DNA of 64,000 nt, from assembly GCF_021730395.1 (NCBI RefSeq), contig NC_069364.1, forward strand, positions 83,467,972-83,531,971, read 5' to 3'. The DNA comes from Mercenaria mercenaria (taxonomy: Eukaryota). Positions 7,141 to 60,885 of the stretch are shown here, one piece after another. Position 1 is the stretch's first letter. Each line of letters begins with the position of its first letter. The position numbers and the translations under genes are program-made. Under the pieces are notes generated by a model. The model saw nothing but the letters and a program-made list of their open reading frames with translations. It had not been told where the DNA came from and did not search any database.

Positions 7141-7654
7141 CCACGGGTGTTCACATAATATGCCCCGCTCTTTCAGAGACGGGCATATACAAAGGGTCAC
7201 CTTCTAACTAGTTGCAAGAAACCCATGAAAGTTGATGTTAGACTGGAATTCTCACCCAAACATTCTCAAATTACAGAGCAGAAACTATTGATCAATATTA
7301 GGTAATATAACATGTTAGAACACGTTTCAATTTTACTTTGTACACATATTAGTAGAGGGAATGCAGGGCAATCAATAACATTTTAACAGGTGATTCAAAG
7401 CAGATAGTGATAGAAATTTGTACTTTTCTGGGAGACTTTCCCTAAACATAGATGGATGTTCAAATAAAAATCAATGCGAGTATCCTATTGCTCTATGGTC
7501 TTATTGACAAACCCATATTAATGTAGAAAAAAATACTTTTCTATGAGACTCCTTCCCTAAACATAGATGGATGTTCAAGTGAAAATAAGTGGGGTTATCT
7601 TCTGCCTCTCTGGTAATATTGACCAACCCATATTTATATAGAAGAAACATTTAC

Positions 7655-7841
7655 CTGTTCCAAACACAACAACATTAAAGTTCCATGTAGGGGGTAAATG
7701 CTGGAGAGTCAGCAGCAAGACTTTCTTGGCACTGATGATGGCATCACCCTTCATAGAGTTTGACAGGTCCAGAAGTAAAATCACACTGACATCATCCGAC
7801 TCACAGGCCTCAAATTCCGGGTAAAATGTCAGCATACATGC
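7655..7841 (-). CDS. PARP4-like exon, start of the VWA domain with the MIDAS motif (ACMLTFYPEFEACESDDVSVILLLDLSNSMKGDAIISAKKVLLLTLQHLPPTWNFNVVVFGT)
   Basis: Acceptor ctctag and donor GGAACAG|GTAAAT. It carries the D-x-S-x-S metal-ion site (DLSNSM) plus the typical VWA beta1-alpha1 pattern and the FN..(V/I)FG(T/S) block seen in ITIH/VWA5A/PARP4 VWA domains. It overlaps ORF 7575..7835(-). Confidence 0.8.
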
Positions 7842-9034: not shown

Positions 9035-9870
9035 CTGTAAATGTACTCAAATCATAACTCAAAAAGTCAAACAGATAAATTTTTAGGCACTCTTTTCTTA
9101 CCTCTGAAAATACAGTGAAACCCCTCTAAACCAGAACCCCTGAAAAGTGGTAACCCGTCAAACCACTTCAAACTGAACAAACACCTTGGTTCATAATAAT
9201 GTTCTTTTATTGAAAATAACCACTCTAAATTAGAATATCACTCAAAAGTGAATGTTTCCTTTGGTCCAGAGGTTGTTTTGTATATAGTTGTTCCACTGTA
9301 GCTGCATGCAACGTTATCACAGTTATGATGGACCAAGGTACAGTGATACTAGTGACTATGGACATCACATTTATATAATCCTACATTTTAACCATTCACA
9401 TGGTCTTCATCAGGAATACATGAACTACACACAACAACTGCCTGTGTTATTTCCATCATCTACCTGCACTATCTCATTCAATTACCTATTATTCCATAGT
9501 TAATTACTCAAGTTGTTTTTCTTAATTTATGTGTCATTTCCTATACTATGCTGTTTACTTTCCTTTAACTAACTGCGTAACCTACGCAGCATTCTTTTAA
9601 TAATCTGTCATTGCTCTAAGTTACTTATAGTTAATGTAAACTTGTATTTTAGTTATGTTACTTTTTATATGTAATGAAGTATGTTCAGAGTATGTTATTT
9701 CCCTAATCCCTTACCTGTGTAGTTCAGTCTTGTTTCTCATAAGGACAAGTGCTTTTTCCTTTCGTTATCTGTGTAACTTCCCTTACCTGTGTAGTTTCCA
9801 AATAATACAAGTATTCTTTCTCATGAATACAAGTGTTGTTTCCTTTCATTATCTGAGTCATTTCCCTTAC

Positions 9871-10032
9871 CTGTGTAGTTTCCTTTAAAGAATCTTTCTT
9901 CCATGGAGCGACACTTCCTGGCAATCTGAAACTAACCATCTCCCCTTCTACCTGTAATTCTGCCACATATGTGATCTTGATCAAGACCGTAGCTCCTGGT
10001 GGAAGATTGCCAACACTTACAGTAAACACATC
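9871..10032 (-). CDS. PARP4-like exon, VIT domain continued (DVFTVSVGNLPPGATVLIKITYVAELQVEGEMVSFRLPGSVAPWKKDSLKETTQ)
   Basis: Acceptor gatttcag and donor ACACAG|GTAAGG. VIT-domain block F.V.VGNLPP...V.I.I.YV.EL, 54 codons in phase 0. It overlaps ORF 9724..10029(-). Confidence 0.8.
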
Positions 10033-10835
10033 CTGAAATCAAATAAGAAACTTTTTTGAAGTCTGTGCACAAAAAGAATTTTACTTTTTCATTTAAGGCT
10101 TTATTCTGCATGACTAAATGAATGTTTAAACGTTCTCATCATTCTTTCATAGTCTCTGTAAACATCAAATATTGCATCACTGTTAAGAAAAACAACAACC
10201 TTATTTGCCACTCATATTCATCAGAAAATAAGACTTCAACTTACAAGAACCAAATTTGCAATACTGTTGTATATCATGGCATTGCATTTTCCATATGTAA
10301 TGGGTTTGTACTAGTTCAACATCTTTTAGAAGTTTGCCAAAATCATTTTTTTTTACATAAAATTACATGGACATTTTTTGGCATAAAATTAAAATTGCAT
10401 TGGACAAGTTAAGGTGAATAATGAGACTAACCCATACAGTTTAGGCCAAAAATAATTTCTAACAAAAATCCATGAAAATTGAGTTCTCTGAAAGTGACTT
10501 TTGGTACAAATTTATTGACATAAGATTTTTACAAGATATTCTTATAAATAACCAAAAATATTGTGCAGAAGGTAGTAAACTGTTGCAACGCTGCTGAAAT
10601 AATGCAGAAAATTTATATTCTTCTTGCATTTTTACCAATATCTAACTTTTGTTCTCACCAAGTTTATCATTTTTCTGTGTCATATATGCCAAACTGTGTG
10701 GAAATGACCACATTGAAAAATTTCACCCAAACTGTGGGTGAGTAGCTTTAAGAATTTAAAATATGTTCTTACAAGAAAAGAGCAAAAATAAAATTGTTCC
10801 TTGTGAAGTCCAGACTTATGATGCTATGTACTTAC

Positions 10836-11060
10836 AGGTGTTTCTTCATCTTGGTCCATGAGGTAGGCACCATGACCTTCACTGATTGCTTTCTTATATT
10901 CTTTGTGAGCTTGTTCCTTCTCTTTCACCTCACCAACAATATGTTTACCATTGATAAATGCTTCAAACCCACACACAGCAGCAAGGTCCCCCAGCGGGAA
11001 GACATATTTTGCCTCCAGTGGATTCTTACTGTTGTTCTCATACTCTTGAAGAACTATCAC
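10836..11060 (-). CDS. PARP4-like exon, VIT domain (VIVLQEYENNSKNPLEAKYVFPLGDLAAVCGFEAFINGKHIVGEVKEKEQAHKEYKKAISEGHGAYLMDQDEETP)
   Basis: Acceptor gtttaacag and donor ACACCT|GTAAGT. This is the canonical VIT-domain block (YVFPL...AAV.GFEA.I.GK.I.G...EKE.A...Y..A...G..A.L). It overlaps ORF 10824..11060(-). Confidence 0.8.
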
Positions 11061-11227
11061 CTGTTAAACAACAAAAGTCAAACATCTACATGTTGACTGT
11101 AAAAAAACATGTTGTATTTTTTTTTTATTCAAAGGGTCATAACTTGTGAAAATTCAACTAACTCTAAACCCATTTAATGTGTACAACTAATGACTGTTCC
11201 TGAGAAGTTTCATTTAAATCCTGCCAA

Positions 11228-24865: not shown

Positions 24866-25417
24866 CTAGTGACAAAATGTGTTTTAAATATAAACATTGT
24901 TTAACCAGCTTCAGTGTTACTGTCACACAAGTGTGTTAATTATGGGCAGGATTTGAATGACACATATAAAGAGTGCTGCGAGTTTCTAAACCATTTAATG
25001 AATACTGTACTATTATTTAATTTTTGAGGGCATTGAATTTCATGGTATGGGCTAGATGGGGTATTTTGCAGAGATATAAATCTGCAGAGTTAAGGTAGTG
25101 GGCCTGTGAGGACAATCTCAAATTAATGTTCAATTAAGTATACTCTGTAAGCAATTTTCAGCATTCTCCAGTATGAACAGAAAGTCAGGTGCTTGTGTGA
25201 GCTACAGTATCCTCCAAGGAATGCTAAAACCTTATACAGGTAAACATATTTCCACGGAAACTACCGACTGCAATTATGTTTCCACTACCTTAAACTTCTG
25301 AAGGGATTTTGCTTGTTCGTTAGGTTTAATTTTGTCGACTGACTCAACTGCAGAGATAAGTCCCCCACCAATATTAATGATTTCAAAGTATACAATAACT
25401 ACTTATCACAACTGAAT

Positions 25418-25665
25418 ATGATATGAGCCGAGCCATGAGAAAACCAACATAGTGTGTTTGCGACCAGCATGGATCCAGACCAGCTTGCACATCCACGCAG
25501 TCTGGTCAGGATCCATGCTGTATGCTAACAGTTTCTCTAATTCCAATAGGCTTTGAAAGCGAACAGCATGGATCCTGACCAGACTGCGCGGATGGGCAGG
25601 CTGGTCTGGATCCATGCTGGTCGCAAACCCACTATGTTGGTTTTCTCATGGCATGACTCATAATT
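25418..25665. mobile_element. Palindromic MITE family A, long copy
   Basis: Same termini as the copy at 1027, with an internally duplicated palindrome core (ggatccagaccagc.tgcacatcc.cgcagtctggtcaggatccatgctg). It shares extended flanks (atatgagccg.gcc) with the copy at 57176. Confidence 0.7.
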
Positions 25666-29986: not shown

Positions 29987-30998
29987 AGGTCAAACAGAAC
30001 TTTGGGATATTGATGGAATTAAACAAAATGGGAAATACAGAAAATGGTGATATTTATTTCCCATATATACATGTTCTGAAGATATAAAAAACTTGAAATA
30101 TGTACACTGCTTGTACAAATACTGATATTTGATTGATAGATTTCAAAATATTCAAACAATGACCGCCCTACCATCCAATATCATCTAAGACACCCCAACT
30201 CATGCATTTAAAACGCGGAAATTCTGTAAGAAATGTTTACTCTTTTTGAGACCTTTAAATCAAAATGACCTTATGCATTCCATGCTACAGAATTTAAACA
30301 TTTTGCTCTAATTATACCAACACTGTTTGCACTGATCATGGGCATGTTTTAAGTTTTTCCGAGATCAATACAATTGATCTCAGTTATATACATTACCTAC
30401 TTGTAGGAACAAATTATACAAACAGACTAGATATATTGCTTTTGGTAAACACATTTATCTCTCAGTAAGACCTCAATGGCTTCCTTAAGCAATGATATTA
30501 AGGTGTATACATAACTTTATATGTGTGCATATAAATAGATACTGTGAAATCATTTAATTTCCAGGGCATGAAATTTCGTGATTTTGGTCAAAACGGCAAT
30601 TTCGTGGGGATATGAATTCGTGGATTTCAATTTTTGATTTGTTTGAACATACAATATATGGCAATTTTATTTTTTCGTTGCAATGGGATCAAATTTCGTG
30701 GATTGACTCAACCACGAAATCCACGAAAATTAGTCCCCCACAAATATTAATGATTTCAAAGTATTGTTCTACCTAACATTTGTAAGCACTATTTTTTAAA
30801 CCACCACAATTTAATTACATCCTTTATTCATGCTGTTGCAACCTGCTCTAATGATTTCTGTATTGCAAATTAAGGCCTAGAGCTGATAGTTTACAGTCTC
30901 TCCTGTTCAACTGAATTTTACAACATGATCTTTTTTAATATTTTTAATGACCCTGTGTATAAATCTACTTTAAAACATTATTTTAATATACTATATAC

Positions 30999-31197
30999 CT
31001 GATATCTTTCCTTCCTTGAGTCCCTCAGATTTAGATTTTCCCGCCATCAAATAGTCATCTGTACTGAGCTGGTGCCCGGCTTCAATACTCATCTTGATCC
31101 AGTCTACAGACACAACCGGAAAACCGTACTTGGCCGCCATTTTACATTTATATGAGAATTCTGCCTTCTTGCTATCATCACACACAACATGTGTACT
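30999..31197 (-). CDS. PARP4-like exon: BRCT domain C-terminal half (STHVVCDDSKKAEFSYKCKMAAKYGFPVVSVDWIKMSIEAGHQLSTDDYLMAGKSKSEGLKEGKIS)
   Basis: Acceptor catattcag and donor CAG|GTATAT. The BRCT signature (THVV..., GFPVVS.DWI..SI..G..L...DY) overlaps ORF 30991..31185(-). Confidence 0.7.
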
Positions 31198-31721
31198 CTG
31201 AATATGTAAATATATATATGTATGGGTATCACAATAAAAAGGACCACCACGATAGATTTCCTCAAAACCTTTTCTAGTGGTTAAGCTGTCCAGTGAGAAC
31301 CTTTTTTGTATATCTGCATCATAGTTTAATGAAAGAGCATGTTAATACAGTAAACGAAAATAGATTAAGCAGTTTTTAATATATTAAGTGCCTTTTCTAC
31401 CACATTCTGTATTGTACTGATGCAAAAACAGAGTTTCCAAATTTTAGTGTGAAGACAGCTTAAGTTCTGTTAGTGCCTCAGTCCTGGTCATCAATGACAT
31501 TTTTTTTTTCTTTGATTTTACAGGATCTTGAAAAACTTTTATTTCAGACAGAAAATTATGTTCTGGAATATAAATTAAATTGCTATAGCATAGTACATAG
31601 TAATAAGAGGATTACTTTCTATCTATCTTCAGTTGGTATAATGCATGTGATTTTATCTCCATACTAATGTTCAATCAGATCTTCAGTTCCCAAAACTTAC
31701 AGAATGTGTAATTTGACATAC

Positions 31722-43321: not shown

Positions 43322-44729
43322 TGACATCTATGGCACGCCAATTGTCCAATAATTACGTGAACCCAGGTTCACAGTCGAAAAACTAGGATTAACGATCGAT
43401 AAACTAGGTTTTTCGAACGTAAAACCAGGTTTTTCGAATACTAACCTATATTTTCAAGCAAAAACATAAGATAACCATAGTTTATGCTCGTGAACCCAGG
43501 TTTACGTTCGATAAACTAGGTTTCTTGACTGAACTATGAATTTCTGTTGTTATCCTAAGTTCATGAGTGTGAACCTATATTTACGGGCGTAAACCTATAT
43601 TTACGGGTGTTTACGGGCGTAAACCATAGTTTATGAACGTGAACCTATGTTAACGACCGTGAACTTGGGTTTACAACCGTAAACATAGGTTCACACTCGT
43701 GAACATAGGATAACGACCTAAAATCATAGTTAGGTTTGAGAAACCTAGTTTATCGAATGTAAACCTAGGTTCACGTTTGTAAACTATGGTTCACGCTCGT
43801 AAACCTAAGTTCACGGTCATAAACATAGGTTCTCGCTCGTAAACATAGGTTCACGTCTGTAAACTATGGGTCACGGCAAGCCAATTATCCAATAATTACG
43901 TTCTTGGTCGAAAAACTAGGATTAACGAATACTAACCTATATTTTCGAGCGAAAACATAGAATAACGGGCATAATTGTCCTTGGTTTACGTTCTTGAACC
44001 CATGTTAACGATCGATAAACTAGGTTTTTCCAATTGAGCAAGAACATATTTTTATGGGCGTGAACCTGGGTTCACAAGCGTGAACCATAGTTTACGAACA
44101 TGAACCTATGTTTACGACCAAAAATCATAGCTTTGTTCGAGAAACCTAGTTTATCGAACGCAAACCTATGTTCACGCTCGTATACCCAAGTTCACGTTCG
44201 CAAACATAGTTTCACATTCGTAAACATAGGTTACGTTCATAAACAAAGTTTCACATCCATAAACTATAGTTCACGGTCATAAACATAGGTTAACGTCTGT
44301 AAACATAGGTTCATGGCCGTAAACCCATGTTCACGCCCGAAATTAATAACTGATTTTATAATCCTAATATATCAACCGTAAACCATGGTTTACGTATGAT
44401 AATCTAGGTTTCTCGACTGAACTACGAATTTCAGCCGTTATCTTATGTTTACGGTCGTTATCCTATGTTTACGCTTGTGAACCCCAGTTCACACTCGTAA
44501 ACCTTAGTTTACGACCATGAACTTGGGTTTACAAGCGTGAACCTATCTTTATGAGCTTGAACTATGGTTTACGGCGTTATCCTATGTTTTCACTCGAAAA
44601 TATAGGTAAGTATTCGAAAAACCTGGTTTTACGTTCGAAAAACCTGGTATATCGATCGTTAATCTCAGTTTTTCCACCGTGAACCTAGGTTCACGTAATT
44701 ATTGGACAACTGGCGTGCCATAGACGTCA
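43322..44729. mobile_element. Foldback-like element: about 170-bp terminal inverted repeats around degenerate 20-21-bp tandem subrepeats
   Basis: The left end tgacatctatggcacgccaattgtccaataattacgtgaacc.aggttcac..tcgaaaaactaggattaacgatcgata is the rc, at about 90%, of 44560-44729. The interior is made of gtaaacctaggttcacg-type 20-mers and holds an extra degenerate TIR-like copy at 43865-44030. Confidence 0.55.
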
Positions 44730-48825: not shown

Positions 48826-49290
48826 TGATCACTACCAAATAGAATGTAAGCCTCCGCAGGTCTAGTCACAAGTAGTCCAAATATAAATAGTACTAATCTT
48901 TTTTCCTTTCCTAGTGCATTTTCTCGGCAGCAACGTGCTTACTTTTACCCTACCGCGTTTCAGTATGTATCACTTTGCATTCTATTGAAATCAGCATGTT
49001 CCTATTGCATGCTAGATAAAAATGGCGGCGTAAGAATTTAATGTCACGAAAAGAGAAACTGAAAGAAGCGAAAAGTAGTAAATTCAGCGGGTTGTATTTA
49101 ACGAACTGTAGTTTTCTTATATAAAAGTTAACATCCCATTTTCTTTTTGTTTTTCTAAAGTAGCGATCTAGTTCTTTATGGGAATATAAGTCTCTGAAAA
49201 TCTGATATGCTAGAAAATGTCGAAAAACCGTTATGAAGTGAGTGACTTTTATATGAAATAAAGAACAGCTGGATTTAGTGGTGTTCAGCC
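48826..49290. repeat. About 465-bp direct repeat, copy 1 (second copy 49797-50265, about 99% identical)
   Basis: ctgatcactaccaaatagaatgtaagcctccgcaggtctagtcacaagtag...ggtgttcagcct is present twice in direct orientation, separated by about 510 bp. The repeat begins TG and ends CA (tgatcac...gtgttca). Confidence 0.85.
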
Positions 49291-49796
49291 TATAAGGGGC
49301 AATACATGGTATTTTCTGAAACCCCTCGAAAATGAATGGAAATGCCATTAATCTATTCTTTATGATGTAAAACGGTAACAAATGGCTAAAAACGCTTAAA
49401 TTTCTTGTGTTTTTGGAATTAAGATCAAATTTTCGACCAGGTGGCACTATTTTGGTTCGTTTTAAGACCTAGTAAATGTCTATTCTCGATTTTAGCACTT
49501 CAGTTGCCTAAATAATATTGAAATTAGCATGTTTCTGAATGAAAATGACAAACATCGTAACGATTAAATGGATGTTAAATGTAAATTCCACGAATAAGGT
49601 AAAATAAATTGAAATATTGCCTGCACAGGGCTAAATTTTGCATATTTTTGGGGATGGGGGTGACCTGTAATGAATTGTCATTTCTCTACATTTTCTCAAT
49701 ATTTTGCACCAAAACTAAGCAGAATCATTGTAAAATAGGTGTACCTTGAAAATGAATGCAAATTCATGGAAAAATCAAACAAAAATTTTCTCTTAT

Positions 49797-50265
49797 AGGC
49801 TGATCACTACCAAATAGAATGTAAGCCTCCGCAGGTCTAGTCACAAGTAGTCCAAATATAAATAGTACTAATCTTTTTTCCTTTCCTAGTGCATTTTCTC
49901 GGCAGCAACGTGCTTACTTTTACCCTACCGCGTTTCAGTATGTATCACTTTGCATTCTATTGAAATCAGCATGTTCCTATTGCATGCTAGATAAAAATGG
50001 CGGCGTAAGAATTTAATGTCACGAAAAGAGAAATTGAAAGAAGCGAAAAGTAGTAAATTCAGCGGGTTGTATTTAACGAACTGTAGTTTTCTTATATAAA
50101 AGTTAACACCCCATTTTCTTTTTGTTTTTCTAAAGTAGCGATCTAGTTCTTTATGGGAATATAAGTCTCTGAAAATCTGATATGCTAGAAAATGTCGAAA
50201 AACCGTTATGAAGTGAGTGAATTTTATATGAAATAAAGAACAGCTGGATTTAGTGGTGTTCAGCC
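49797..50265. repeat. About 465-bp direct repeat, copy 2
   Basis: See copy 1. ORFs 48950..49447(-) and 49925..50365(-) simply reflect this duplication. Confidence 0.85.
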
Positions 50266-50729
50266 TTAACCGAAATATGATACCGTTCGAACCAACAGTC
50301 GTTAGAGAAGTATCCAAATTTCGAATAAGGTAGATGTGACAAACGAAACTGACTGAAAGAAACATAATAAATAATCTGATTTAAAGATCTGATTTACCTT
50401 ACATGCAAAACTCGACGCAAAACACTTTAGATAAGGAAATATTCAACACTTCCGCAACAATACACATCAAGAAATCTGGGTTAGTTACTGTTTGTTTAAT
50501 ACATACAGTAATAAGCGTTTGGATGATTGAGAATCACCCGCCAAAATGTCATCGCTCAAAATAACAAATGAGTCCATTTATCTACATATTTGTCCTTGGG
50601 TTAACAGTGCAAACAAACAATGTATATCAAAAACTGTCTTTTTTTGCATAGTTAACTGCAAGGGAAAATGATTTGATTACAAATTATGTTAAATCTACGT
50701 GTCGTATAACTATCCAAAGACGATTGGAG

Positions 50730-51299: not shown

Positions 51300-52821
51300 C
51301 TACAGCTTGTGTATTGAATGAGGGGAACTAAGTAACCTTCTTTGGGGATGGCAACTAGTCCATGATTGATTTATACATAAGGGAAAGTCTGTTATCAATA
51401 CATCGGAGTTCTAGTCGACTTAGGTTTAAGGGAGTGTAACATATCTGTAATACTGGAGGTTTGACGGTAGCCAGCCTTAATCCCAACGAGCTGCCCGTCT
51501 CTGAACACCCTCTGTCTGGTCTATGAAGGATTGAGTACAAGGTGACCACACTTCAGAACCATATTCCAACTGGGGTCTAACAAGTGCTTGGTAAGCCATG
51601 GACTTTGATGGTCACAGTCAGATTTGACCTTGCTGTTTCTGCGCAGAAACCCTAATGTTTAATTGGCTTTCTTTGTTGAACTTTTGATATGGGCGTCCCA
51701 TGAAAGATTGTCTGATATATCCGCGCCAAGGTATTTGGCCGAGGTGACTGCTTCGAGCAGGACTCCATGGAGGTAGTACTGGGTGGGAATAAGATGTTTC
51801 CTTCTTGTGACGTGGATGGTTTGACATTTGGAGAGGTTTAATTTCATATCCCACTCCAAACCCACTCCTCTAACATTTTGTGGTCATTTTGGAGGGTAAC
51901 TAATGCATTTGCAGATGACAGTGTGAGGTAGATTGCTTTATCATCTGTAAAGAGGCGTACTTTAGAGCTGATATTTTGTGGGAGGTCATATATATTGACT
52001 AAAAAGAGCAGGGGTCCAAGGGCGGAACCCTGTGGAACACCAGGCATCTGAACTGATGTCATTCAGGATTCTGCTATCAAGAAAACTTTTTATCCTCTTT
52101 AGAGTTTGACCTCTGACTCCATAATTGAGCATTTTCAGTAGGACTTTCTCGTGGCTGACCTTATCGAAAGACTTACTAAAATCTAGTTAGCAGTAATATG
52201 AGATCTACTTCTTTCTAATCATAGACTGAGGTTATCAGGTCATTTACTAACATTGCTAGTTGGGTGACACGTGATCTTTTCCCCGAAACCCATGTTGCAG
52301 GTTGTAGAGGATACTTTGGCTGGTGAAATGTTTTACTATTGAGGAGGGAACTATGCGTTTTAATACTTTGCATAGAAGACATGTTAAAGAAATAGGACTA
52401 TAGTTGGCGGGTTTGACCTTTCAGTTTTGTTGTAAACATGGGTTACATTTGCTGACTTCCACTGGGATGGTAGGGATCCTTCTTCACAGGATCTTGCATA
52501 TTTAAGATGAAATTACCATTTTGATTAACTGACATATCTTGAGGTTTCATTTTACAAAGTGAAGCAAGTGTCAGTGGAGATTTTGGGCTGAAGACCGACT
52601 GAAACTGTTTGTTCAGTACTGTTGCCTTGGCGTTATCTTATGACAGAGCTTCGTTTCATACTTCAGGGATGACATGGAGGACGACTCTTGTTTGGAATGT
52701 TTAATTAATGAGTAGATTTTCTTTAAATTTGGTCTACTTGGAAGGTTGGGGTCAGTACTATGTAGATTTAGGATGTCTTCAAGATATTGGTGATAAGCCG
52801 CTTTGACGTTTTTCCGCACTA
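51300..52821 (-). mobile_element. Non-LTR retrotransposon (LINE, CR1/L2/RTE-like), reverse-transcriptase and 3' part, degenerate
   Basis: Minus-strand ORFs carry RT motifs: GVPQGSALGPLLFLVNIYDLP, FTDDKAIY (the YxDD region), LNLSKCQTIHVTRRK and VTSAKYLGADISDNLSWDAHI. A 3' block LEYGSEVWSP...VQRRAARW is also present. Frameshifts and stops show it is a pseudogene copy. Confidence 0.8.
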
Positions 52822-52826
52822 AGTGT

Positions 52827-55800
52827 CACGGTGGGGAAACCAAGAATGCAACGTCATCAAAACCCAGCGCAAATGAGCTGACCACACACAAATTTACGTC
52901 GATTCAGGTCAGAAAAGTCTTGTAACTTTTTTATTACTGCAGCTTCCGACTCGAGATAAAGAGCACCGTACCCGGCCTGGAGTATACTATTCTGCGGTAG
53001 TGTTCCATATTGTACGTATAGCTTGGTTTTTGCTCGAAAACTCGAACAGTTGGCAAAGAAGGTATGAGCTGTACCACACTTTTGTCTAAGAAAGTGAGTT
53101 TTGACCGCATTTTCGTGAAATGAGGACAAATTTGAAGCTCATTTAATATCAGTGACTAGCATAACAGTCAATCATTGTTTTATTTTGCTATTTTCAAGGA
53201 TATCTGACGATATTTTTTCAAAACAAACACCGTTATTAAAATGAGAACATCCACACTGACGACTTTGTTGGAGAACATCCACACTATTATCATGCACTAT
53301 TTAGAAAAATCAAGACAAAACCGTTTTTGTTTTAAAATCTGACATGTGAAAAAGTAAGGTAAAAGTGATAAGTTTCACTGCATTCAATCTGCGCGTCATT
53401 CGTTATTTTGTTTCAGATGGCAGTATTTTTTCTTTTTATGACATACTGCAAATTTAATAATGTCAATTTGAAAATGTTGTTGCAATCCGTAGGGCATTTG
53501 ATCTATATAAATATTTAGTAGAGTAGATTCTACATGAATAAGATCGTGTTATATATAATAATTATAATATAAAATATAAAAATGGAAAAGAAAACATAAA
53601 TCTTTTTTCCACCTTTTTAGTGTTTGAAATTACTTTTCTCCAATGTCATTGCAGTATTTTTGGAATTATGGGGAAATTAATTTTGGTAAATCAAGATTTA
53701 CTTTCATTCGTTTATTAACCCGGTAAGTCACATATACTGTACGCAGAGCTTAAATTTGTAAACAAAAAATAATTTTAAACACTAAACAGGTTAGCCAATA
53801 ATTAGAAAAATAAAACTTCTCATCCCATTTAAATTATTTTAGCACCAATAACATATGCGAGATAACAAAGTCTATGTAAATTTCTTTTACCAAACCACAA
53901 ACTTATACTTAAACACCCTTACAATTTTCCTGGCTGAACTATTATTAACGAACAATACGGCTCAAGCTCTATAAAACAATTTGAAATTATTAAGATCTGC
54001 TAATGTGAATAGGTGCCCGCAACTAGTAAATTATTAATACAGTTGTAACAGTATTTAGTGATTGAAATTATTTTGTCCAATGGCATTGCAGAACATTTCA
54101 AATTATGGGCAATTCATTTTAATAAATCAGCATTTGATTGAAGTGCGATATTAGGGGCTAAGCTTCAGCCGGAAAACCTGCTCTGCGGGAACACTTAAGA
54201 CAGTCACAGCGGAGAGAGTATGGAAAGGTGTATAAATACTGACGAAAGTTTAAGGTGTTACATGAAAATCTTTCCCGTATGATGCTTAAGGTAGTTCGGA
54301 TCCATTTTTGTTTTCTTCACTGATTTGAAATTTGATTAAACTCCCGATTTTTCAAAATTATAGAATAAACTTGCAACTGTTGGCAAATGTAAATTGATAG
54401 AGTCACGTGCTTTTTCTGCTGAACAAAATGTTTTGACCTTAAGTAACTTTTTGTAATATGTGCCTATAGGAAATCATCTTTTCAAAAGTAAATTGTCCCC
54501 AATGAAGCTTTTAATGAATCTTCTCAGTCAAAAATATAAGCTACGGTCTTACATGTGATTAAATCAAATGTATAAAACCGTGTTTTTATGTTTGCCTTTA
54601 TTTTAGTTTATACAGAATTCATTTTAGGTCGATTTTGAAGGAAGTTCTATAACTTACATTCATCACTCTCGACCCCTCATTCCTGATGGGATCAATCGCC
54701 ACGGGGGTATGAGAGAAGAGGCCAGTTTCCCTTTTAATGCTGAACGCCAAGCAAGGGAGCTACTGGTACCATTTTTCACGTCTTTGGTATGACGCGGCCG
54801 GGAATCGAATCCACGACCTCACGCACTCAAAGCGGACGCCCTAACACTTGGCTATAGACCTTGCCTTTATTTTAAGAGATCAAGCTGATTTAAAGACACC
54901 ATTTAGAACTATTTAATGTTCAAACAATTTTAATATCATGTTTTATCTTTAGAAATATAATATTGTTGTCATGGGATTGCCATTCAATAAACGAATTTCG
55001 GTTCCGTATGCAGAACCCAGGCTTTAGTCTACGTAATGATAATACATTGTATGCCTTTCTATCGGTTTTTTATGTATAAGGTTGGATTGTATTTGATATT
55101 TGAAAGAGACTTCCATTTGCTGAAATAAGATTTAAAATATCTAACAGTTATAATATTTAGTTAAAGTACTAACTATCCGTGTTTTATGCACTTTGGGATG
55201 GATATAGTTCTAAACAAAATAACAATACAATAACTATTTCAATCCTCTATTTGCTTTTAAACTTTGTGTGCAGGACTTTTATGCGACTTTGTCTTGTTAT
55301 CTTAAAATAATGTTTTTCCTAAGATGCAATCAATCTGAACACCGTGTCCTTATGCCACACTTTACACAGAGATTAATGTTAGCCTAACATGTGCTCAGCC
55401 ATTGCTATATAATTTGGCAGATCTATTTTAACTGGTCTACAGACTTGCGGTAAATGGTATGAACTGCTGATTGTATGTATAGACGACATTTGTTGTTGAA
55501 CAACGTAGCTTGACTGCCTAAGACACAGCTTTTAGGAAGCATTACTGCAATAATGGTAATTAAGAGTGTGGATGTTCTCCAACAAAGTCGTCAGTGTGGA
55601 TGTTCTCATTTTAATAACGGTGTTTTTTTTTAATAAAATATCGTCAGATATCCTTGAAAATAGCAAAATAAAGCAATGTTTGACTATTATGCTAGTCACT
55701 GATATTAAATGAGCTTCAAATCTGTCCTCATTTCACGAAAATGCGGTCAAAACTCACTTTCTTAGACAAAAGTGTGGTACAGCTCATACCTTCTTTGCCA

Positions 55801-56024
55801 ACTGTTCGCGTTTTCGAGCAAAAACCAAGCTATATGTACAATATGGAACACTACCGCAGAATAGTATACTCCAGGCCGGGTACGGTGCTCTTTATCTCGA
55901 GTCGAAAGCTGCAGTAATAAAAAAGTTACAAGACTTTTCTGACCTGAATCGACGTAAATTTGTGTGTGGTCAGCTCATTTGCGCTGGGTTTTGATGACGT
56001 TGCATTCTTGGTTTCCCCACCGTG
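52827..56024. mobile_element. Non-autonomous DNA transposon with long terminal inverted repeats, candidate Transib-like
   Basis: Arms 52827-53285 and 55565-56024 are reverse complements, about 460 bp at about 97% identity. The termini read 5'-CACGGTGGGG...CCCCACCGTG-3'. The element is flanked by the direct repeat AGTGT at 52822-52826 and 56025-56029. The 2.3-kb interior is non-coding and contains a SINE2 copy. It is inserted into the LINE. Confidence 0.6.
54722..54862 (-). mobile_element. tRNA-like SINE family 2, inside the long-TIR element
   Basis: The rc matches 60749-60885 over about 135 bp. Confidence 0.6.
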
Positions 56025-56029
56025 AGTGT

Positions 56030-56600
56030 GTTAGGTCTAGGAACTTCTTCCGAATAGAAGACTTGTTTGTCTTCCTAGCTTTTTAATAGGCCCTATTACG
56101 TCTTCACATATAAGTTGCCCCATAACCACAAAGGACGCATCTGACTCCCGAGCTAGTGAATGAGCTAGCTGATAGAGCAGCTGTCTTTCGCAGTTGTCAG
56201 GTCTGTAAGGGTAAACCACAACACTATGTCAGATATCAACTTTGCAATTATCATCTCGTTTGGAATTTAAGGTCCTCTTCTCTTTTTTGCAGAGACTAGA
56301 ATCCCTCTCCTATGTCTCATTCCTCTGGACAACTGTAACATTTTGCGTGTTTTAAGCTTAATTGTAGTCGTACCCATCTGTTGGCTCTTCGTATTTATGA
56401 AGGTAATTTGATAGAACCAAACAACATCCGCGGGTTGCCGAAACAAACTAATTAGACGACAGGTGACAGGAAAGTGATTTATAGTCACAGCGAACTTATC
56501 AATTTCACCCTGATCAGTGTTGACTTTTTTATTATATTGGAGACATTGCTTTAAAACTCTGAGAAGGATTACTAGTATCATATCAGTAGTCTCGGTAATT
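56030..56600 (-). mobile_element. Upstream (5') part of the same LINE, possibly an endonuclease-region remnant
   Basis: Minus-strand ORFs 56037..56219 and 56267..56581 sit directly beyond the insertion that interrupts the RT-bearing segment. Their similarity to an APE-type endonuclease is weak. Confidence 0.35.
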
Positions 56601-57159
56601 TTAATGAAAAGGCGGTGTGCACGGAATTTCTTAAGTCACAGAGCTCGATTTCACTGATCGGTAGGAAGTGGAAAATGCAGCAGTAGCCTTTAATAAGTTG
56701 ACTGTTACTACTCCATGGAACGCATATAATTATATATATATGTGTATTTACAACCTTTGGGCTGTGCGCACTTGTATTATCAGCTTCAAACAGCGACAAT
56801 ACTAGCTGTCATAAATTTTGTGCAAATCAGTGAAGAATGCCTATTTTGTTCATGATTTCAAAAGTCACGATTTTTGACACAAAATTAAAAGCTGAATTTT
56901 AATTTATGTTTACAAACTTTGATTTTAAGCCGTGTTGAGCAGGCCCAACAAAACAGAATAAAACTGTGATAAAATATATCACAACATGAACGTGTAGTGT
57001 TTATTAAAAATCATTCGATCATTCATAAACTGGTAGGGAAAGCTTTAGTTTATTTAAGTTTATGCCATGCAAAGGAACACTGGAAAAAATGTGAGACCGT
57101 ATATCACAAATGATAAAATCTGTGAAAAAATCCTTTGGAAGCATAGAAAGCAATCAAGC

Positions 57160-57410
57160 AACAAACATATGAGCCGCGCCACGTGAAAAATCAACATAGT
57201 GGCTTTGCGACCAGCATTGATCCAGACCAGCCTGCACATCCGCGCAGTCTGGTCAGGATCCATGCTGTTCGCTTTCAAAGCCTATTGCAATTAGAGAAAC
57301 TGTTAGCGAACAGTATGGATCCTGACCAGACTGCGCGGATGCGCAGGCTGGTCTGGATCCATGCTGGTCGCAAACGCACTATGTTGGTTTTCTCAAGGCT
57401 GGGCTCAAAA
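57160..57410. mobile_element. Palindromic MITE family A, long copy
   Basis: About 90% identical to 25418-25665. Confidence 0.7.
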
Positions 57411-57853
57411 ATTGATGTGAATTGATTTTCACTTGGTTATTGCAGTTAGCTCCAAGTATACCTACTTGAAACAAAAAGGAAGACGTATTGAAAAGAAAAT
57501 AGAACCATAAAGCGCAGGTAAAGGACGGATAATAAAAGTTGGGACCAGAGAGTTCAATATAAATCCAACTAATGCATTCGCTAGCTACGTCCGCAGATTA
57601 TGAAAAGTTTGTAAACACCTTATGTTTGCTCAAAAGCTAATATCATGACTGCAATACTCGACCTGGGATAATTTGATATTGGAAATATTGAAATTTAGTT
57701 TATACCATCAAATTTTAACAGTTTAAATTTTTAAACTTATAAATGTGGACTTTCTTTGAATGTTACCGCAGCTTATATATTGGAACTTATTTTCTAATTT
57801 AATTTTACTTAATTTTAATTAGTGTCGAAATGTGATTTTCGGTATTAAGAGAT

Positions 57854-60744: not shown

Positions 60745-60885
60745 AACCCCCTCGGTAGCCTAGTGGTAGAGCGTCCGCTTCGAGTGCGGGAGGTCGTGGG
60801 TTCGATCCCCGGCCGCGTCATACCAAAGACGTAAAAAATGGTACTGGCAGCTTCCTCGCTTGGCGCTCAGCATTAAGGGGATAGT
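60745..60885 (+). mobile_element. tRNA-like SINE family 2
   Basis: ctcggtagcctagtggtagagcgtccgcttcgagtgcgggaggtcgtgggttcgatccccggccgcgtcataccaaagacg..., a cloverleaf-like head with a degraded T-stem. The second copy at 54722 is in reverse orientation. Confidence 0.6.

Follow-up and report, generated by a model that had tools for sequence, protein, structure and literature searches.

We examined a stretch of 64,000 nucleotides of the Mercenaria mercenaria genome (assembly GCF_021730395.1, contig NC_069364.1, positions 83,467,972 to 83,531,971 of the forward strand; hereafter the window, with positions counted from its first letter). Our analysis focused on a 3.2-kb element with long terminal inverted repeats (TIRs), which an original prediction had proposed as a candidate non-autonomous transposon of the Transib superfamily. 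The element lies within a decayed long interspersed nuclear element (LINE), is bracketed by a perfect 5-bp target-site duplication (TSD) and contains a tRNA-derived short interspersed nuclear element (SINE). The coordinates of these features, and those of the PARP4-like exons detected in the same window, are given in Table 1.

Table 1. Features of the transposon, its host LINE and the neighbouring gene in the window (RT, reverse transcriptase; RSS, recombination signal sequence).
Feature	Position	Strand	Details
Whole element	52827-56024		3.2 kb; between the two AGTGT copies
Left TSD, AGTGT	52822-52826		Same as 56025-56029
Right TSD, AGTGT	56025-56029		Same as 52822-52826
Left TIR, ~459 bp, starts CACGGTGGGGAAACC	52827-53285	+	97.6% identical to the right arm (reverse-complemented)
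Right TIR, ends ...GGTTTCCCCACCGTG	55565-56024	-	Sequence, repeat finder, alignment, blastn
Heptamer CACGGTG, RSS/Transib-like	52827-52833	+	Present at both ends
Nonamer-like block ATCAAAACC	52856-52864	+	TIR positions 30-38; 22 bp past the heptamer
Two perfect 15-nt direct subrepeats GAGAACATCCACACT	53243-53257, 53271-53285	+	Inner edge of the TIR; 28-bp spacing
Mirrored 15-nt subrepeats in the right arm	55565-55579, 55593-55607		Inner edge of the TIR
AT-rich non-coding interior	53286-55564		26-39% GC; composition and six-frame Pfam scan
tRNA-derived SINE, 255 bp, secondary insertion	54606-54860	-	tRNA-like head, perfect 14-bp TSD
TSD of the SINE, TTGCCTTTATTTTA	54592-54605, 54861-54874		14 bp, perfect
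Host LINE, downstream part (RT domain)	51622-52826	-	Decayed, with stops and frameshifts; PF00078 RT homologues, E to 1e-149
Host LINE, upstream part (endonuclease-RT linker)	56030-56220	-	In frame with 52826 after removal of the element
PARP4 (vault PARP)-like exons: VWA, VIT, BRCT	7578-7841, 9727-10038, 10827-11063, 30994-31341	-	Pfam; VIT E = 1.5e-23

The two arms (52827-53285/6 and 55565-56024) were confirmed to be near-identical reverse complements, and blastn gave an identity of 97.6% across 464 alignment columns. Ten substitutions fall within the first 400 nt, and there is one 1-nt indel. The repeat finder reported them as two segments, one of 402 nt (52826-53227 and 55624-56025; 98% complementary) and one of 77 nt (53213-53289 and 55561-55637; 95% complementary), which are parted by the 1-nt indel alone. 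When the left arm was aligned globally with the reverse-complemented right arm, the similarity ran from CACGGTGGGG, with which the arms start, to ...GAGAACATCCACACT, and collapsed beyond that point. Both termini read CACGGTGGGGAAACC, and the predicted CACGGTG ends, as well as the perfect AGTGT copies next to them, are directly readable in the sequence. The GC content of the arms is ~41%, and the 15-nt subrepeats at their inner edges are putative subterminal protein-binding sites. The high arm identity (97%) had also been taken as a sign of recent insertion. This argument is unsound: TIRs are not regenerated at transposition, and in cut-and-paste movement both arms travel with the element unaltered, so that arm identity gives no insertion date.

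By chance, two fixed 5-bp stretches would match perfectly in about 1 of 1000 cases. With the termini placed at CAC, the 5-bp duplication alone fits, while the flanking 2, 3, 4 and 6 bp do not match (GT/AG for 2 bp, TGT/AGT for 3 bp, GTGT/AGTG for 4 bp). Mutator, P, piggyBac and Tc1 were rejected on their TSD lengths, which are unsuited to this duplication. DIRS elements make no TSD, and DIRS-like inverted repeats were rejected because one is present here. The hAT superfamily, in which the third terminal base is always G and the TSD is 8 bp long (PMC1131882, Figure S7 legend), was rejected as well, since the third base is C in this element and there is no 8-bp duplication.

The precision of the insertion was assessed on the host LINE, a candidate CR1/L2-like LINE in the original prediction, whose RT fragment reads ...LFTDD... 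on the minus strand. After removal of 52827-56029, i.e. the element and one AGTGT copy, one minus-strand frame crossed the junction (...RKKFLDLT/HLVRKNVKAAYHQYLEDIL..., the slash marking the junction), while the LINE frame would be shifted if either zero or two AGTGT copies were kept. The restored junction peptide is ..KKFLDLT/HLVRKNVKAAY.., where intact LINE proteins show KKFLDLKHLVRK, and the reconstructed empty site at the DNA level is ...CCGCACTAAGTGTGTTAGGTC.... The stitched conceptual LINE protein had 1,578 RT-family homologues (best E = 1e-149), and the junction region was free of gaps against nine intact LINE proteins that span it (e.g. P0001, DRKKFLDLKHLVRKKVKEAYNQYLENIL). We placed the insertion point in the linker that joins the endonuclease domain to the RT domain, because two of the matched proteins (P0010 and P0014) carry upstream endonuclease sequence and some matches have the PF14529 domain. 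The empty site reconstructed in this way at the protein level indicates that 5 bp were duplicated upon insertion. Because the LINE frame is restored without gaps by taking out the element plus one AGTGT, we interpret the locus as a genuine, precise transposon insertion in a decayed LINE and not as a local inverted duplication. The return of the frame and of the gap-free alignment also agrees with the original prediction that the element is nested within the LINE, between its RT and upstream regions, and is younger than that copy; the order of events is LINE first, then the DNA transposon.

The named matches of the LINE came from Pinctada and from metagenome-assembled genomes (MAGs) of lucinid symbionts. 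In particular, six proteins from 'Candidatus Thiodiazotropha' MAGs, annotated there as reverse transcriptases (P0009, P0020, P0021, P0031, P0049 and P0097), are closely related to this animal LINE and, because of this relationship, most likely represent contamination from the lucinid clam hosts.

We found no other copy of the element. Within the window, blastn (word size 9) recovered no second copy, searches with the terminal 23-mer and 15-mer at up to 3 mismatches gave no further copy, and a scan for CACNNTG...CANNGTG pairs with a 5-bp TSD gave no further element. One extra 15-mer match (44667-44681, 3 mismatches) was dismissed as a chance match, as it lies 48 bp inside an unrelated inverted-repeat arm and shows no extended similarity. 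The protein, metagenome, genome and viral contig collections that we searched lack this species, and empty outcomes there say little; the nearest outside DNA was 84% identical, in a conserved exon. In these collections, the six reading frames of the TIR had no match among 5.8 billion proteins, degenerate patterns for the 90-aa open reading frame (ORF) of the TIR were absent from the metagenome and genome contigs, and the exact terminal 20-mer and 18-mer were absent from the metagenome, genome and viral contigs. Further copies had been suggested as a check on the 5-bp TSD and on the termini; none was found in the 64-kb window or in these collections.

The lack of a second copy would also suit a non-mobile origin, either as a local inverted segmental duplication, which the original prediction had named as its alternative, or as an assembly artefact. 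Exact boundaries, a perfect 5-bp flanking duplication and a gap-free LINE frame are unexpected from either, and the absence of copies weighs little in collections without the genome of this species. We consider a non-mobile origin extremely improbable, and a local inverted duplication was rejected on the precise insertion with its TSD.

The interior agrees with the original description, in that it holds a SINE and no transposase ORF. A six-frame Pfam scan of the whole element gave no match at E<=1 and no transposase remnant, and there were no ORFs of at least 70 aa within the element outside the arms. The lone ORF above this length is a 90-aa ORF within each arm, for which no homologue was found among the 5.8 billion proteins and no match in Pfam; its length is unremarkable compared with 60 random ORFs of at least 75 aa in the window. 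The open frames of the two arms (~90-93 codons; 52857-53129 on the minus strand and 55713-55991 on the plus strand) have 2 amino-acid differences between them. The element is non-autonomous.

Before the arrival of the SINE, the element was ~2.9 kb long. The SINE inserted into transposon sequence, and may have done so before or after the transposon reached this site. The perfect TSDs of 5 bp and 14 bp are compatible with relatively young events and give no date. A related SINE copy is present at 60750-60880 (plus strand), with a head identified as tRNA-Ser(cga) by ARAGORN and as tRNA by Rfam (30 bits); the two copies share only ~137 bp, corresponding to the head and core, at 88% identity. The interior also contains an inverted pair of 27 nt at 53611-53791, 89% complementary across a gap of 127 nt, and a direct repeat of 78 bp (53616-53693 and 54054-54129; 82% identical, 438 bp apart). 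These may be small nested sequences resembling miniature inverted-repeat transposable elements (MITEs).

With regard to classification, a 5-bp TSD has been described as exclusive to Transib among the eukaryotic DNA-transposon superfamilies (Kapitonov and Jurka, PMC1131882). The Transib TIR consensus consists of CACAATG, a 22-23-bp spacer and AAAAAAATC; its conserved positions are CAC (1-3) and the A's at 34-35, which are nonamer positions 5-6, and the CAC triplet is invariant across Transib, RAG-like (RAGL) elements and RSSs (PMC1131882). All five conserved positions are present in our element, where TIR positions 34-35 are AA. The heptamer CACGGTG matches the RSS heptamer CACAGTG at 6 of 7 positions and the Transib consensus at 5 of 7. 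The heptamer of the Helicoverpa zea Transib may likewise be CACGGTG, to which we give no weight here. Long identical arms are acceptable for a Transib element, because the Transib of Helicoverpa zea (Hztransib) has 'long TIRs' together with a 5-bp TSD (PMC1852546) and TIRs are symmetric in most Transib families (PMC8289069).

The non-autonomous Transib elements (e.g. TransibN of Anopheles, Hopper/Kodama of Drosophila) and Hztransib are similar to the present element in the CAC heptamer, the 5-bp TSD, the symmetric TIRs and A34-35. A further similarity is an interior with no coding sequence, which implies that mobilisation occurs in trans, and the TIRs of Hztransib are likewise long. The differences concern the heptamer (CACGGTG vs the insect consensus CACAATG), the length of the TIRs (460 bp vs the 37-38 bp cited for the TransibN, Hopper and Kodama families), the target, which is not GC-rich here, and the host, a mollusc, where intact Transib transposases are seldom found (PMC10294476). 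On these features, we interpret the element with moderate confidence as a single copy of a cut-and-paste DNA transposon that is non-autonomous and was most likely moved by a Transib-type transposase acting in trans. It is a genuine, well-delimited non-autonomous TIR transposon with the structural signature of Transib, and its membership of that superfamily is probable, if unproven.

We also compared the ends with vertebrate RSSs. The block ATCAAAACC matches the RSS nonamer ACAAAAACC at 7 of 9 positions and the Transib nonamer AAAAAAATC at 6 of 9, and follows the heptamer after a spacer of 22-23 bp, as in a 23-RSS. CACGGTG itself is an efficient RAG heptamer, and GG directly after the heptamer, as found here, is a poor spacer context for RAG (PMC9723617). 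The ends of the element differ from the vertebrate system in being symmetric (23/23 and not 12/23), and the nonamer match is barely above chance: matches of at least 7/9 have a background of 0.3% per position, which gives p ~0.02 over six spacer lengths. The statistical weight of the block is weak, and its reading as an RSS-type nonamer is suggestive only.

Alternatively, the element could be a non-autonomous member of the CMC group (CACTA/EnSpm, Mirage, Chapaev), or its superfamily could be an undescribed one whose transposase makes 5-bp staggered cuts at CAC ends. CMC elements, the sister group, also have CAC ends and often long TIRs with subterminal repeats, and the 15-nt subterminal direct repeats of our element resemble those of CACTA. 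The CMC and Transib transposases are treated as close relatives in a published phylogeny, and the length of the TSD shifts within a single lineage, with 5 bp, 3 bp and TA in the Nozomi-related Transibs (bioRxiv 10.64898/2026.08.26.747230). However, the TSDs of CMC elements range from 2 to 4 bp (bioRxiv 10.64898/2026.08.26.747230), and no duplication of 2, 3 or 4 bp fits here with CAC termini; moreover, the termini are CACGG and not CACTA. We consider this assignment unlikely.

A derivative of a RAGL transposon (RAG1L-RAG2L, ProtoRAG-type) would be non-autonomous too, and would be found in a host of the same phylum: RAGL transposons of the oysters Crassostrea virginica and Pinctada imbricata have TIRs and always 5-bp TSDs, non-autonomous copies included (PMC7204232). 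The oyster RAGL_B transposons and their derivatives share with our element the phylum, the CAC termini and the 5-bp TSD (PMC7204232). Past the CAC, however, the TIR departs from the protostome RAGL consensus CACTWMCAAACKTYKBB, with a match of 4/17 (CAC plus one position), and the conserved AAA at positions 8-10 of that consensus is GGG in this element (PMC7204232). There is no RAG1L or RAG2L remnant within the element, and neither CACGGTG nor CACCGTG was found in the text supplementary files of PMC7204232. A RAGL origin appears improbable on this comparison.

Several points weigh against the Transib assignment. It is based on the structural features of one copy, while transposase homology is the defining feature of the superfamily. 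Both the TSD and the termini are labile in Transib, with TSDs of 5 bp, 3 bp and TA and variable termini in the one Nozomi-related lineage, and it has been argued that these features support transposase homology and must not override it (bioRxiv 10.64898/2026.08.26.747230). For non-autonomous elements, the Repbase rule is an equal TSD length and terminal positions 1-11 with at most one mismatch to a classified member (PMC4455052). With only one copy known, TSD length and terminal conservation are not comparable across insertions. In the ORFs of at least 75 aa in the window, the Pfam search detected no Transib or RAG1-like transposase, only PARP4-like exons, nor could any transposase be tied to these TIRs. 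Bivalve genomes contained 1 intact Transib among 14,275 DDE elements (PMC10294476). Transib and RAG favour GC-rich targets (PMC1131882), whereas AGTGT, a single event, has 40% GC.

The last of these points concerns the termini: the complementarity of the inverted repeat runs one base past CAC (T52826/A56025; arms 52826-53227 and 55624-56025), and if the termini were TCAC...GTGA, the duplication would be GTG (3 bp) and the empty site would not differ from that of the 5-bp reading. The element could then belong to a family with 3-bp TSDs, such as CMC, PIF/Harbinger, Zator, Academ or an atypical lineage within Transib, and Transib lineages with 3-bp TSDs do exist (bioRxiv 10.64898/2026.08.26.747230). 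Nevertheless, a one-base extension occurs by chance in 25% of cases, and T-CAC termini are found in none of the cited families with 3-bp TSDs. Harbinger duplicates TWA. The termini of the 3-bp-TSD Transibs start with G (bioRxiv 10.64898/2026.08.26.747230), and we regard the shifted termini as highly improbable. The Transib assignment of the original prediction is thus partly supported, in that the 5-bp TSD, the CAC heptamer and A34-35 fit the published signature, and is tempered by the single copy, the purely structural basis and a target that is not GC-rich.

Under the Transib assignment, a RAG1-core-like DDE transposase, encoded at another site in this mollusc genome, would mobilise the element in trans. 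The transposase would bind both identical ends and nick at the border between flank and CAC, and hairpins on the flanking DNA would free the element, leaving blunt excised ends. The two 3'-OH ends would then be joined to target strands staggered by 5 bp, and gap repair would yield the AGTGT duplication. Such chemistry is established for Hztransib and for RAG (PMC4840297; PMC1131882). The precise insertion, the 5-bp duplication, the CAC-heptamer termini and the lack of coding capacity are observed at this locus, and it is the type of transposase, and hence the chemistry, that we infer by analogy.

In the rest of the window, the transposon is located more than 21 kb upstream of the PARP4-like BRCT exon. 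At the VIT exon, identity to PARP4 proteins of gastropods and bivalves (Plakobranchus, Potamilus, Mytilus, Magallana, Saccostrea, Biomphalaria) is 83-88%, which marks the window as molluscan and its host as probably a bivalve. A JGI metagenome contig (L003; 3300049158) contains a mollusc PARP4 exon with 99% amino-acid and 84% nucleotide identity to the window; because its nucleotide identity at this exon is only 84%, we take the source of the contig to be a related species only.

A second inverted-repeat element of ~1.4 kb was found at 43322-44729. Its arms (154 nt, 91% complementary) start with TGAC(A/G)TCTATGGCACGCC, its interior contains many short inverted and direct subrepeats (ACCAGGTTTTTCGAA units), and no obvious TSD was found around it. 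The occurrence of CACGGTGGAAAAAC in one arm, 48 bp from its outer edge, is probably a coincidence. At least 3 copies of a palindromic repeat are present in the window (57147-57425, 25409-25652 and 1027-1176; 86-93% identity), the first of them ~1.1 kb beyond the right end of the transposon. Both strands of this repeat encode similar peptides (..MDPDQTARM..LVWIHAGRK..), and the repeat resembles a family of MITEs or foldback elements. Finally, two near-identical ORFs of 165 and 146 aa (48953-49468 and 49928-50380, minus strand) lie ~975 bp apart and point to a tandem duplication or to a repeat in tandem arrangement; the pair had no meaningful Pfam match, and the 146-aa ORF (49925-50365) had no exact match in the protein collection.

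The element is probably an added example of a known transposon type. If the Transib assignment is true, its 460-bp ends would serve as a specific probe with which to look in this mollusc genome for the autonomous RAG1-like transposase; otherwise the result is routine repeat annotation, with a nested chronology of LINE and then DNA transposon and a SINE within, which is of use for libraries of transposable elements and leaves current views unchanged. Such a probe is of interest as Transib transposases look scarce in bivalves (PMC10294476) and RAG-like transposons are evolutionarily interesting (PMC7204232), and it could also show if the nonamer-like block is conserved among copies. We think it doubtful, and improbable on the present comparison, that a mollusc Transib or RAG1-like transposase has been active recently and that the element, with true 23-RSS-like ends (CACGGTG, a 22-23-bp spacer and a ACAAAAACC-like nonamer), is its non-autonomous partner; if it were, it would represent a protostome heptamer-spacer-nonamer end outside vertebrates and would offer a handle for cloning the cognate transposase.

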